DNA of 64,000 nt from an uncultured bacterium (GTDB taxonomy: Bacteria > Gemmatimonadota > Gemmatimonadetes > Gemmatimonadales > GWC2-71-9), in NCBI GenBank assembly GCA_965651205.1, contig CBFGRM010000001.1:5621-69620 (forward strand), read 5' to 3'. The translations under genes and the position numbers were made by a program. Under the pieces are notes generated by a model. It was not told where the DNA came from and ran no database searches. It saw only the letters and a program-made list of their open reading frames with translations. This document shows positions 11,496 to 34,863 of the stretch, in pieces (the stretch's first letter is position 1; every line of letters begins with the position of its first letter).

Positions 11496-12545
11496 ATGCA
11501 CTCCACTGACCCCGCCCTCCGCTCCGCGCTCGAGCACCTCGCCAGCGGCACCCCGCTCGGCGAGGATCTGGCCCATCGCGCCTTCCGCTCGATAATGGCC
11601 GGTCGCGCCACCGAGGCCCAACTCGGCGCAATCCTGCTGGCGCTGCGCGCCCGCGGCGAGACCGTCGACGAACTGGTCGGTGCCGTCCGCGCGCTGCGCG
11701 AGGCGATGCAGCCGGTGGACCTGGGCAATCCCGATCAATTGGTGGACACCTGCGGCACCGGTGGCGGTGCGGTCCGCACCCTCAACATCAGCACCGCCGC
11801 GGCGCTGGTGACCGCCGGCGCCGGCGTACGGGTCGCCAAGCACGGCAACCGCTCCTTCACGTCGCGTTCGGGCTCGGCCGACGTGCTGGAGGCGTTGGGT
11901 GTCGGGGTGGAGCTCTCAGGTGGGTCAGCCGCGCACCTGATCGACGAGGCCGGCCTGGTGTTCCTGTTCGCCCCTTTGCATCACCCGGCGATGCGGCACG
12001 CATCCGGGGTTCGGCGCGAACTCGCGGTGCCCACCGTGATGAACCTGATCGGGCCGCTGGCCAACCCTGCCAACGTGCTCCGACAGGTGGTGGGTGTGGC
12101 CGAGGCCCGCCACGGCGCGTTGATGGCAGGTGCGCTCCAGCGGCTGGGGTCGGTGCACTCGATGGTGGTACACGCAGCGCTCGGACTCGACGAGATTGCC
12201 TCGCTCGGCGAGACCACGGTGTGGGAGGTGCAGGGTGGCAATGTGCGTGAGTGGCGGCTCGATCCGGCCAGGTTCGGCCTTGCCACCCCGAATCTTGCCG
12301 GCATCGAGGGCGGAGATCCGGCCGACAACGCCGCGGCAATCGAAAGGCTGCTGGAGACTCCGGACGAAGTGCCCGAGGCGCTGCGCGCCGCCGTACTCCT
12401 CAACAGCGCCGCGGCCATCACGGTCTCCGGGATGGCAGGGGACCTTGCAGCGGGCGTGGTGGCCGCCCGGCGCTCATTGTCCAGCGGGGCGGCTCTGGAT
12501 CGCCTGAACCGCCTGCGGCGGCTCATCCCGCTCAGAACTTCCTGA
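11496..12545 (+). CDS. trpD: anthranilate phosphoribosyltransferase
   Basis: DTCGTGG, NISTAAA, KHGNRS.TSRSGSAD.LEALG, GLDE. Confidence 0.98.
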   Translation: MHSTDPALRSALEHLASGTPLGEDLAHRAFRSIMAGRATEAQLGAILLALRARGETVDELVGAVRALREAMQPVDLGNPDQLVDTCGTGGGAVRTLNISTAAALVTAGAGVRVAKHGNRSFTSRSGSADVLEALGVGVELSGGSAAHLIDEAGLVFLFAPLHHPAMRHASGVRRELAVPTVMNLIGPLANPANVLRQVVGVAEARHGALMAGALQRLGSVHSMVVHAALGLDEIASLGETTVWEVQGGNVREWRLDPARFGLATPNLAGIEGGDPADNAAAIERLLETPDEVPEALRAAVLLNSAAAITVSGMAGDLAAGVVAARRSLSSGAALDRLNRLRRLIPLRTS

Positions 12546-13140
12546 TCACCCCGACGACCACACCCTGGATGAGCACGTCGCTCTCCTGGAAGCGGAGCGG
12601 ACGCATAGTGGGGTTGGAGGGCTGGAGCCGGATCCAGCCGCCCGGTTCGCGATAGAACCGCTTGACCGTGGCTTCACTGCCATTGACCAGGGCGATAACC
12701 ATCTCGCCGTTGTCGGCGGTCTCGCGACCGTTGACCACAACGAGGTCGCCATCGCTGATCTGCTCGTCGATCATCGATTCGCCTCGAACCTTGAGCGCGT
12801 AGTTGGGGCCCCGGCGGGGCAGCATCTCGTCGGGAACCGATAGCACCTCGCCGGCCATTACCGATTCTATCGGCATCCCGGCGGCCACCGTGCCGAGCAA
12901 CGGGATTTCGGTGGCACCGACGCGGCCTCGAGGCGGCAGCACCTCGATCGACCGCGATTCGTTGTAGGACCGGCGGATGTAACCCTTCCGCTCGAGGTTG
13001 GTGAGATGTTCGTGTACCGTCGCCAGCGACTGGTAGCCGAACTGTTCCGCGATCTCCTCGAGCGAGGGAGCGTAGCCCTGACTGTCGATGGCGCTGGTGA
13101 GGTAGTCGAGGATGTTGCGTTGCTTGCGTGTAAGTGACAC
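12532..13140 (-). CDS. lexA: SOS repressor LexA
   Basis: LTRKQ..IL HTH, SLATVHEHL..LERKGYI, AAG cleavage site, GESM catalytic Ser, TVKR catalytic Lys; GGAGG RBS before GTG at 13140. Confidence 0.97.
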   Translation of the reverse strand: MSLTRKQRNILDYLTSAIDSQGYAPSLEEIAEQFGYQSLATVHEHLTNLERKGYIRRSYNESRSIEVLPPRGRVGATEIPLLGTVAAGMPIESVMAGEVLSVPDEMLPRRGPNYALKVRGESMIDEQISDGDLVVVNGRETADNGEMVIALVNGSEATVKRFYREPGGWIRLQPSNPTMRPLRFQESDVLIQGVVVGVIRKF

Positions 13141-13155
13141 AATGCCTCCGGACCA

Positions 13156-13203
13156 CGAAGAGAACCCGAACACCATATTCACATTACCCGAAGGTAACCC
13201 GAA
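13156..13203. promoter_or_regulatory. two direct-repeat operator candidates (CGAA-N7-CGAA), putative LexA boxes
   Basis: CGAA at 13156, 13167, 13189 and 13200 (spacing 11/22/11); one pair fills the -35/-10 spacer, the other lies just downstream of the predicted start site. Confidence 0.6.
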
Positions 13204-13209
13204 GCGCAA
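13181..13209 (-). promoter_or_regulatory. lexA promoter
   Basis: Minus strand TTGCGC-17 bp-TAATGT upstream of the lexA RBS. Confidence 0.65.
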
Positions 13210-13210
13210 G

Positions 13211-13999
13211 ATGGCTATCCTCGACCAGATTCTCGCCGACAGCCGCCGCCGGCTGCCAGACCTGCAGGTCCGGGCCGCCGCTCTGTACACCGCGGCGGGG
13301 AGTCGCGAGACCCCGCCACGCTTTCTGGCCGGTGTCCGCGACGCGGAACGGGTGGCCGTCATCGGCGAGGTCAAGCGGCGGAGCCCCAGTCTGGGGGCGA
13401 TCAATGAATCGCTCGACCCGGTAGGTCTGGCCAGTGCCTACGAGGCGGGTGGCGCCGCGGCGATCTCGGTGCTTACCGAGGAGGCGCGATTCGGCGGCTC
13501 GATTGCCGATCTGGATGCAATCTCCCGGGCGGTCCGGCTGCCGACGCTCCGCAAGGACTTCATCGTCAACGAGCTGCAGGTGGTCGAGGCGCGGGCTGCC
13601 GGTGCGTCGGCGGTGCTGCTGATCGTCCGGGCCCTCGATGACGACGAACTTGCGTCGATGCTGGAAGTAGCCCACTTCCACGGCCTGGCGGCCCTGGTGG
13701 AGGTGCACAATCGCGCCGAGCTGGACCGCGCCGTCCGGTCCGGGGCCAGCATCATCGGAGTCAATGCCCGCGACCTCGACACGCTGGAGATCGATATCCC
13801 GGCCTCCCTGGCTCTGATTGCAGAGATCCCCGGCGACCGGATCGCAGTGGCAGAGAGCGGAATGCACTCGGCCGCCGACGTCCGGCGAGCCGCTCAGGCC
13901 GGCGCCGACGCGGTGCTGGTGGGCAGCTCACTGGCTGCGGCGGCCGATCCACTGGCGCTGACCCGCGAACTCTCCGGAGTGAAGCGCAGTGGCCGTTGA
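13211..13999 (+). CDS. trpC: indole-3-glycerol phosphate synthase
   Basis: IGEVKRRSPS.G, ISVLTE..FGG, LRKDFI, GASAVLLI, EVH, GVNARDL, VAESG. Confidence 0.97.
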   Translation: MAILDQILADSRRRLPDLQVRAAALYTAAGSRETPPRFLAGVRDAERVAVIGEVKRRSPSLGAINESLDPVGLASAYEAGGAAAISVLTEEARFGGSIADLDAISRAVRLPTLRKDFIVNELQVVEARAAGASAVLLIVRALDDDELASMLEVAHFHGLAALVEVHNRAELDRAVRSGASIIGVNARDLDTLEIDIPASLALIAEIPGDRIAVAESGMHSAADVRRAAQAGADAVLVGSSLAAAADPLALTRELSGVKRSGR

Positions 14000-33520: not shown

Positions 33521-34863
33521 ACGCGGCCGGCAGCCCGGAGGAACCGCTGGAGGAACTGGTCACGCTGGTGCGGGACGGCCACACCGATGCCTTCATCGAG
33601 CGTGCCTGGCAACTCGAGCCAGCCGACCTGGCCGACGTGCTCGCCTCACTCACCGATGACGAGCGGATCGAGTTGGTGCGCGCGATGCCGGCGGAGTTGT
33701 CATCGCAGGCGCTGGTCGAAATGCCCGACCACGCGCACGCGGAGGTCACCCTCGCTGCGCTCGATCCGGAACACGCGGCCGAGATCGTCACCGAGCTGGA
33801 GGACGACGATGCCGCCGACCTGCTGGGTGAACTGGAGCCCGAACAGCAGGAGCGCATTCTCGCCGGGGTGGAGGACCGCCACGACGTCGACCGCCTGCTG
33901 CGCTACGACGAGGAGAGCGCCGGCGGCCTGATGACCACCTACCTCGTCACGGTGACGGATGTCGATACCGTGGCGTTTGCCCTCGAGGCAATCCGGCGCC
34001 AGGTGGAGGATGTCGAGGACGTTTCGGAGATCTTCGTTGTCGATGCCCACCGGCGCCTGGTGGGTTTGCTGCCATTCAAGGAAGTGGTGCTGAGCTCGCC
34101 TTCGGCGCTGGTTCGCGACGTGATGCTGCCGGCAGATGTGCGGGTCGCGCCGGAGGAGGACCAGGAAGAGGTCGCCCGCCAGATGGCCCGCTACAATGTG
34201 CCCAGCATTCCGGTGGTCGATCCGGCGGGACGGTTGCTCGGCAGGATCACCTATGACGACGTGATCGACGTGGCCGAGGCCGAAGCCACCGAGGACCTGC
34301 TGCGTTTCGGTGGTGTTTCACCGGATGAAGGACTGGCCGCCACGTGGTCGGCAGCAGTGCGGTCGCGGCTTCCCTGGCTGTATGTCAACCTGCTCACCGG
34401 TTTCCTCTCCGCTGCCGTGGTCTATTTCTTCAAGGGCGCGATCGAACGGATGTCGGTGCTGGCAGTCTGGATGCCGATCGTCGCCGGAATGGGCGGCAAT
34501 GCGGGCACGCAGGCGCTCGCGGTGACGGTGCGCCGCTTGTCGCTGGGTCTGGTTCCCGCTGCCCAGATCCGTCAGCTCGTGCGCAAGGAACTCGTGGTCG
34601 GCCTGGTGAACGGTGTCGCCATCGGCACCGTGCTGGCCGTCGTGTCGGTGCTGCTGGGTGAATCGTGGCGACTGGGCGCAGTGGTCTTCCTGGCGATGTC
34701 GCTCAACCTGTTCGTGGCCGGATTCGGCGGATCCTTCGTGCCGGTGCTGCTGGAGCGACTGGGGGTCGATCCGGCCATCGCCTCGTCGGTGTTCGTGACC
34801 ACGTTGACCGATATGTGCGGCTTCGGACTGCTCTTGGGACTGGCTTCGGTGTTGCTGCTCTGA
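33517..34863 (+). CDS. mgtE: magnesium transporter MgtE
   Basis: PADLAD, ESAGGLMT, CBS pair, RLPWL, P....MGGNAGTQ, DPA.AS..FVTT.TD. Confidence 0.97.
   Translation: MNAAGSPEEPLEELVTLVRDGHTDAFIERAWQLEPADLADVLASLTDDERIELVRAMPAELSSQALVEMPDHAHAEVTLAALDPEHAAEIVTELEDDDAADLLGELEPEQQERILAGVEDRHDVDRLLRYDEESAGGLMTTYLVTVTDVDTVAFALEAIRRQVEDVEDVSEIFVVDAHRRLVGLLPFKEVVLSSPSALVRDVMLPADVRVAPEEDQEEVARQMARYNVPSIPVVDPAGRLLGRITYDDVIDVAEAEATEDLLRFGGVSPDEGLAATWSAAVRSRLPWLYVNLLTGFLSAAVVYFFKGAIERMSVLAVWMPIVAGMGGNAGTQALAVTVRRLSLGLVPAAQIRQLVRKELVVGLVNGVAIGTVLAVVSVLLGESWRLGAVVFLAMSLNLFVAGFGGSFVPVLLERLGVDPAIASSVFVTTLTDMCGFGLLLGLASVLLL

Follow-up and report, generated by a model that had tools for sequence, protein, structure and literature searches.

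The 70-bp spacer between lexA and the divergent trpC gene of an uncultured bacterium carries four copies of TTCG on the minus strand, all in the same orientation, and it raises the question of whether these are operators through which LexA controls its own synthesis, and in what geometry the repressor would read them. The spacer lies in the window, that is, the whole stretch of 64,000 nucleotides analysed here (contig C1, positions 5621-69620), which belongs to a 2.38-Mb metagenome-assembled genome with a G+C content of about 66.6-66.7%. The closest relatives of its LexA are all labelled Gemmatimonadales or Gemmatimonadota. The features of the locus, in window coordinates, are as follows.

12532-13140, minus strand: lexA, 202 aa, GTG start (TIGR00498, E 4.6e-60).
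13145-13149, minus strand: Shine-Dalgarno sequence GGAGG, read from the sequence, about 4-5 nt ahead of the lexA GTG.
13170-13155, minus strand: candidate operator 2, TTCGGGTTCTCTTCGT, direct repeat with 11-bp period, 21.4 bits with the position-specific scoring matrix (PSSM) described below.
13181-13186, minus strand: predicted -10 element TAATGT (TAnnnT); TA...T is invariant and lies exactly 17 nt after TTGnnn in 109/109 upstream sequences.
13203-13188, minus strand: candidate operator 1, TTCGGGTTACCTTCGG, direct repeat with 11-bp period, filling the -35/-10 spacer, PSSM score 22.0 bits.
13204-13209, minus strand: predicted -35 element TTGCGC (TTGnnn); TTG is invariant directly 5′ of operator 1 in 109/109 sequences.
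13211-13999, plus strand: trpC (indole-3-glycerol-phosphate synthase; NF001377, E 3.9e-78), divergent from lexA.

On the minus strand the spacer reads CTTGCGC-TTCGGGTTACCTTCGGG-TAATGT-GAATATGGTG-TTCGGGTTCTCTTCGTGG-TCC-GGAGG-CATT-GTG. The four TTCG start at 13203, 13192, 13170 and 13159, which gives the 11/22/11 spacing and the coordinates reported in the preliminary description of this DNA. As also reported there, one pair exactly fills the 17-bp spacer between TTGCGC and TAATGT, and the other sits just past the predicted start site: operator 2 begins 10 nt past the -10 hexamer and would span about +5 to +20 if transcription begins some 7 nt past the -10. The palindrome GAAC-N4-GTTC was looked for in the lexA-trpC spacer and is absent; every site there is head-to-tail. 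The lexA promoter was not called in a scan with the sigma-70 consensus, because each hexamer fits at only 3/6 positions. The assignment of the -35 and -10 elements therefore rests on their conservation and not on consensus strength. GGAG at the Shine-Dalgarno position of lexA is likewise kept in the relatives in the promoter alignment.

The genome has a single LexA match, and the protein aligns over its full length with the LexA structures 3k2z and 1jhh/3jso. The cleavage site A87-G88 (VAAG), the catalytic Ser122 (GESM) and Lys160 (TVKRF) are all kept. The recognition helix of the winged helix-turn-helix domain, S38-L46, reads SLATVHEHL and is aligned with SPNAAEEHL of E. coli LexA. These motifs are conserved in 120 Gemmatimonadales homologues, among which the SLATVHEHL helix is almost invariant. 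The helix had been called Firmicutes-like, a comparison that refers to the B. subtilis LexA sequence ...SSTVHGHLARLE....

Conservation upstream of lexA orthologues had been named in the preliminary description as a check on the proposed operator, and the repeats are indeed kept in about 100 Gemmatimonadales genomes. In an alignment of 22 lexA promoters of the same genus (LexA 82-90% identical; mean column identity about 60%), the invariant columns are the four TTCG(G), a TTG six nt ahead of repeat 1, and the TA..T that directly follows the second repeat. The same promoter layout is found in two other families of the order (7 promoters; LexA 61-68% identical) and in 80 further Gemmatimonadales genomes. 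Across about 100 related lexA promoters the four TTCG are invariant, against an identity of only about 60% in the flanking coding DNA. Both pairs are present in 105/109 lexA upstream sequences, and the remaining 4/109 keep only the promoter-embedded pair. These single-pair promoters, also from Gemmatimonadales (L054, L096, L100 and L108), have a degenerate TTTGGG in place of operator 2.

The logo of operator 1 is G[CT]nC-TTCGG-N6-TTCGG-GTA, and the consensus of operator 2, obtained from 69 distinct sites, is TTCGG-gnTCTn-TTCG[GC]. The base before TTC may be C, G, A or T without preference (G in 16-43%), while GG after TTC is 98-100% conserved. The half-sites had been given as CGAAG/CGAAC; the conserved half-site is instead TTCGG (CCGAA on the opposite strand). 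The period within a pair is always 11 bp, at the lexA promoters and at all other sites. The distance from the second to the third TTCG, by comparison, ranges from 13 to 22 bp among the 105 two-pair promoters, with 14 bp the commonest and 22 bp seen in this genome alone. A fixed period within pairs together with a variable distance between them argues for two separate 16-bp operators, each an independent site for a dimer. The 22-bp gap results from 6-8 extra bases between the -10 element and operator 2 (13171-13180, the GAATATGGTG region), present in this genome only when compared with about 100 relatives; operator 2, which would otherwise cover the start site, is thereby displaced to about +5. 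Since the 22-bp gap is not conserved, helical phasing of the two operators was rejected. The earlier statement that all four repeats lie on one helical face is thus true of the 22-bp gap in this genome but does not extend to the relatives, where the gap varies and the operators are independent.

The occurrence of the motif was then counted in the window and in the genome. TTCGG-N6-TTCG occurs 3 times in the window against 0.4 expected from shuffles, and 2/3 of these are the lexA sites, 33 bp apart. The third match, 34101-34115 on the plus strand, falls within a 478-aa open reading frame and most likely arose by chance. Genome-wide, the number of TTCG(G) pairs mainly reflects codon periodicity (multiples of three). 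Coding and non-coding DNA were separated with a codon-usage gene caller whose starts are somewhat over-extended, and "non-coding" here denotes the part of the genome, about 13%, that is either outside genes or no more than 60 nt into one. In this fraction the exact TTCGG-N6-TTCGG occurs 9 times genome-wide; 29 other orderings of the same five letters occur 0-4 times, as does TTCGG at each period from 6 to 22 except 11. A 16-position PSSM was built from the lexA sites and applied to the genome with a threshold of 13 bits. It returned 30 matches of at least 13 bits, 16/30 of them non-coding or at the 5′ end of a gene, compared with the roughly 13% of the genome that this fraction represents.

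Some exact matches are evidently chance, since those at C4:53168 and C29:19562 have no obvious SOS target and the exact site in infB is inside coding sequence; the infB, murC and LVIVD-like matches were judged to be chance. The 46 non-coding sites with one mismatch were set aside, being mostly terminator-like hairpins and sites at unrelated genes. At C29:19562-19591, a doubtful operator candidate, three TTCG(G) spaced at 11 bp are found shortly after the start of a 601-aa subtilase-like open reading frame; the 2 kb around them have a G+C content of only 56-60% and may be of foreign origin.

The best-scoring PSSM site, TTCGGGTTATCTTCGG on contig C123 (24.5 bits), is upstream of a gene for a Y-family polymerase (dinB/imuB-like; IMS domain, PF00817, E 2e-33). 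It is followed in score by a DUF1697 gene, lexA operator 1, uvrB, lexA operator 2 and recA. The DUF1697 gene (PF08002, E 3e-31), a putative SOS gene, has two head-to-head TTCGG-N6-TTCGG in its promoter (C34:7207-7246), with TAGATT after the first, as at lexA. At uvrB the site is inverted and lies 21 nt ahead of the start codon. Upstream of recA the sequence reads CTTGC-TTCGGGACATTTTCGG-TGC-TAGTTT, with a second, weaker site, TTTGG-N6-TTCGG, 22 bp downstream. The repeat at recA is 2 nt nearer to TTG than at lexA, and the spacing from TTG to TAnnnT is still 17 bp; that the operator shifts under a constant spacing speaks for TTG and TAnnnT as elements of the promoter and not of the operator. The two copies of uvrA, ssb and recN have no upstream site in this genome, even at two mismatches. 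Enrichment at SOS genes, the other check that had been put forward, was therefore seen for recA, uvrB, the Y-family polymerase and the DUF1697 gene, but not for uvrA, ssb or recN.

Conservation at recA was followed in one metagenome scan with RecA as query. TTCG[GTC]-N6-TTCGG was found within about 100 nt upstream of recA in 11/11 Gemmatimonadota-like contigs (RecA 73-85% identical), in one of them inverted. Contigs from other phyla (RecA 63-68% identical) have other boxes upstream of recA, for example GAAC-N4-GTTC. On one further contig (L121; RecA 70% identical) the region upstream of recA holds four copies of GTTC with a period of 8 bp, GTTCTCTTGTTCGAATGTTCCATTGTTCC, which may be another non-canonical SOS box. 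In four relatives with uvrB 82-89% identical, CCGAA-N6-CCGAA is located at -36/-37 in 3/4, and a forward TTCGG-N6-TTCCG is present in the fourth. An RNA element was considered and rejected, as the orientation of the site flips (inverted at uvrB, a head-to-head pair at DUF1697); freedom of orientation indicates a site in DNA, presumably bound by protein.

The uvrB region has further peculiarities. The gene seems to be leaderless or nearly so, with a -10-like TATCTT/TATATT 6-7 nt before the ATG (C15:41177-41215, and around 560-603 in L191, L192 and L194), and in the same four loci an inverted LexA-type site lies directly upstream of the -10-like element. Outside the window, the genome contains about 190 short tandem arrays whose unit is 7-8 bp long and which fall into three families (GAGAAGG, GCGAGAAR and GAGACGT). 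An inverted copy often follows the array, so that the two make a long hairpin; most arrays are intergenic, and contig ends are a very frequent location. Examples are C15:41214-41281 (beside the uvrB operator), C15:9206-9260 (in the recA leader), C8:23874-24052 and C11:11118-11311. For contig C1, of which the window is a part, Tandem Repeats Finder listed no array with a 7- or 8-bp unit. Upstream of uvrB, relatives have other units in the corresponding position (GCGACAG in L191, CTCACCC/TTCTCCC in L192).

Beyond the order, many 50%-identity cluster representatives with LexA 44-60% identical to the present protein carry the helix S[LV]ATVHKH[LIV], and the lexA upstream region was read for six of them. 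In 4/6 (L195, L196, L197 and L200), TTCG[CT]-N6-TT[CT]GC lies exactly between TTGnnn and TAnnnT, as in the L200 promoter, TTGACA-TTCGCTTTTTCTTCGCC-TAAATT; in the other 2/6 (L198 and L199), no TTCG repeat is present upstream of lexA. The G+C content is 71% at L195, 62% at L196 and 52% at L197. For L196, the sole organism name among the listed homologues is Candidatus Binatia, from one 66%-identical protein. The change of E to K in the helix may track the change from G to C at position 5 of the half-site, although with six loci that lack a taxonomy this is only a hint. It is possible, with the balance leaning somewhat against it, that TTCG[G/C]-N6-TTCG[G/C] is the operator of one widespread LexA class with the helix S[LV]ATVH[EK]H[LIV], found in several distant phyla and not a peculiarity of Gemmatimonadota. 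Such a class may span Gemmatimonadota, Binatia-like and other uncultured lineages. The box had been described as lineage-specific, which is too narrow in view of the variant repeat at these 44-60% identical lexA genes. If the class is real, recognition of direct repeats by LexA would be old or horizontally spread, as against the phylum-by-phylum re-invention of current reviews; one pairing of helix and half-site common to several phyla is what the present loci hint at.

Could the repeats be functionless, the product of chance or of low-complexity repetition? TTCG is a common tetramer in a genome of 66.6% G+C, and TTCG-N7-TTCG occurs 81 times genome-wide. Against this, about 100 genomes keep the repeats without change, the excess of exact non-coding sites is confined to period 11 (9 versus 0-4 in the controls), and the sites co-occur at SOS genes, so that chance is effectively refuted as an explanation. 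Nearly as improbable is that the repeats are part of the promoter architecture (spacer or UP-like elements belonging to a lineage-specific sigma factor) or that they serve to regulate trpC. The invariant TTG and TAnnnT that flank operator 1, and the fact that the spacer is common to lexA and trpC within the genus, are what one would expect from such elements. Operator 2, however, is equally conserved without these flanks, the recA repeat is offset by 2 nt while the 17-bp spacing is retained, and the sites are inverted at uvrB and DUF1697. The genes that carry them are a DNA-repair set, none of them beside trpC, and at the distant loci with the variant repeat lexA lies beside other genes. Since operators of this kind also occur where trpC is not adjacent, at recA and uvrB among others, trpC is an adjoining gene outside the lexA switch.

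A more serious alternative is that another DNA-damage regulator, standing above lexA, recA and the repair genes, binds these sites. Such regulators are known, namely DdrO/PprI in Deinococcus and PafBC in Actinobacteria, and there are other phyla in which recA and uvr genes belong to damage regulons independent of LexA. The reading of LexA as the binding protein comes here from sequence comparison, and several classic LexA targets are missing from the regulon, uvrA, ssb and recN having no site. We nevertheless consider this alternative unlikely. The site is doubled and most constant at lexA itself, in about 100 genomes, which is a signature of autoregulation; its placement in the promoter spacer and over the start site fits a repressor and not an activator; and in distant lineages the small helix change from E to K goes together with the half-site change from TTCGG to TTCGC at the same promoter position.

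The observed sequences, positions, conservation and enrichment of the sites make it highly probable, on comparative-genomic grounds, that the TTCGG-N6-TTCGG sites upstream of lexA are LexA operators of direct-repeat geometry. From the autoregulation pattern and the association with recA and repair genes (guilt by association), we infer LexA as the protein that binds them and represses the gene at the predicted promoter and start site. The central proposal of the preliminary description, a LexA operator built as an 11-bp direct repeat at repressor positions, is thus borne out by the conservation at lexA, recA and uvrB and by the enrichment, as far as genome comparison can indicate.

In the mechanism we propose, lexA would be autoregulated through two LexA operators, each a head-to-tail TTCGG-N6-TTCGG with a period of 11 bp, or one helical turn. 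Each operator would be bound by one LexA dimer. The head-to-tail arrangement at 11 bp implies that the two winged-helix domains of the dimer would point the same way along a single face of the DNA, which the flexible hinge presumably allows, as has been proposed for other direct-repeat LexA boxes. LexA on operator 1, within the -35/-10 spacer, would keep RNA polymerase off the promoter, and LexA on operator 2, at or just past the transcription start, would form a second block. Upon DNA damage, RecA filaments would induce self-cleavage of LexA between Ala87 and Gly88 by Ser122/Lys160, and the promoter would be freed. A small SOS regulon, comprising lexA, recA, uvrB, the Y-family polymerase gene and the DUF1697 gene, would be under the control of this operator.

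For Gemmatimonadota, a major phylum of soils in which the response to DNA damage has so far gone undescribed, these results supply a first core regulon and a concrete, testable candidate for the SOS box, TTCGG-N6-TTCGG. They also offer a clean case for the question of how a symmetric LexA dimer reads head-to-tail half-sites. As a type of switch, LexA autorepression from an operator in the promoter spacer is textbook; the sequence version found here appears to be undescribed for Gemmatimonadota. A literature search for Gemmatimonadetes, Gemmatimonadota or Gemmatimonas together with a LexA motif, or for a TTCGG SOS box, returned no description among the sources that it covered, which excluded most subscription journals.

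Among the known LexA boxes, that of the Gram-positive bacteria (Firmicutes and Actinobacteria) is CGAAC-N4-GTTCG, an inverted repeat in which 9 bp separate the centres of the half-sites. The TTCG/CGAA core of the half-site is common to that box and the one described here, and the recognition helix of B. subtilis LexA is similar to the one here. The geometry differs: the Gram-positive box is a palindrome, whereas here the half-sites are head-to-tail and 11 bp apart.

The alphaproteobacterial LexA box is the direct repeat GTTC-N7-GTTC, as given in PMC8565304. It resembles the present box in being a direct repeat, in its 11-bp period, in the TTC core and in its occurrence at SOS promoters including those of lexA and recA, the LexA function being presumed in our case. 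The conserved letters, however, are shifted. In the present box the GG after TTC is invariant and the preceding base is free, whereas the G before TTC is conserved in the alphaproteobacterial box; the two thus have the 11-bp direct-repeat period in common but not the conserved GTTC tetramer. The recognition helices differ as well, SKSGIHRLI in Caulobacter LexA and SLATVHEHL here. The GTTC-N7-GTTC box was reportedly found also in Acidobacterium capsulatum by Mazon et al. in 2006, a study listed as ref. 53 in PMC7739468.

Direct-repeat LexA motifs are reported for Acidobacterium, Patescibacteria and Balneolaeota in PMC7739468. According to the same paper, the Balneolaeota motif, TTACACATATTTTWTACATA, is a direct repeat validated by EMSA. 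The discovery route there was the same as ours, namely motif discovery in lexA promoters combined with comparative genomics, and the sequence of that motif is unrelated to the box described here. The direct-repeat motif of Patescibacteria is attributed to Sanchez-Osuna, Barbe and Erill (Environ Microbiol 2017) in PMC7739468 and PMC8565304, neither of which gives its consensus. It is likened to ours by its description: it too is a direct repeat, in another phylum, and its regulon is small and built around genes for repair and translesion synthesis. Should the Patescibacteria consensus prove to be TTCGG-N6-TTCGG, the Gemmatimonadota box would be the same motif in a second phylum.
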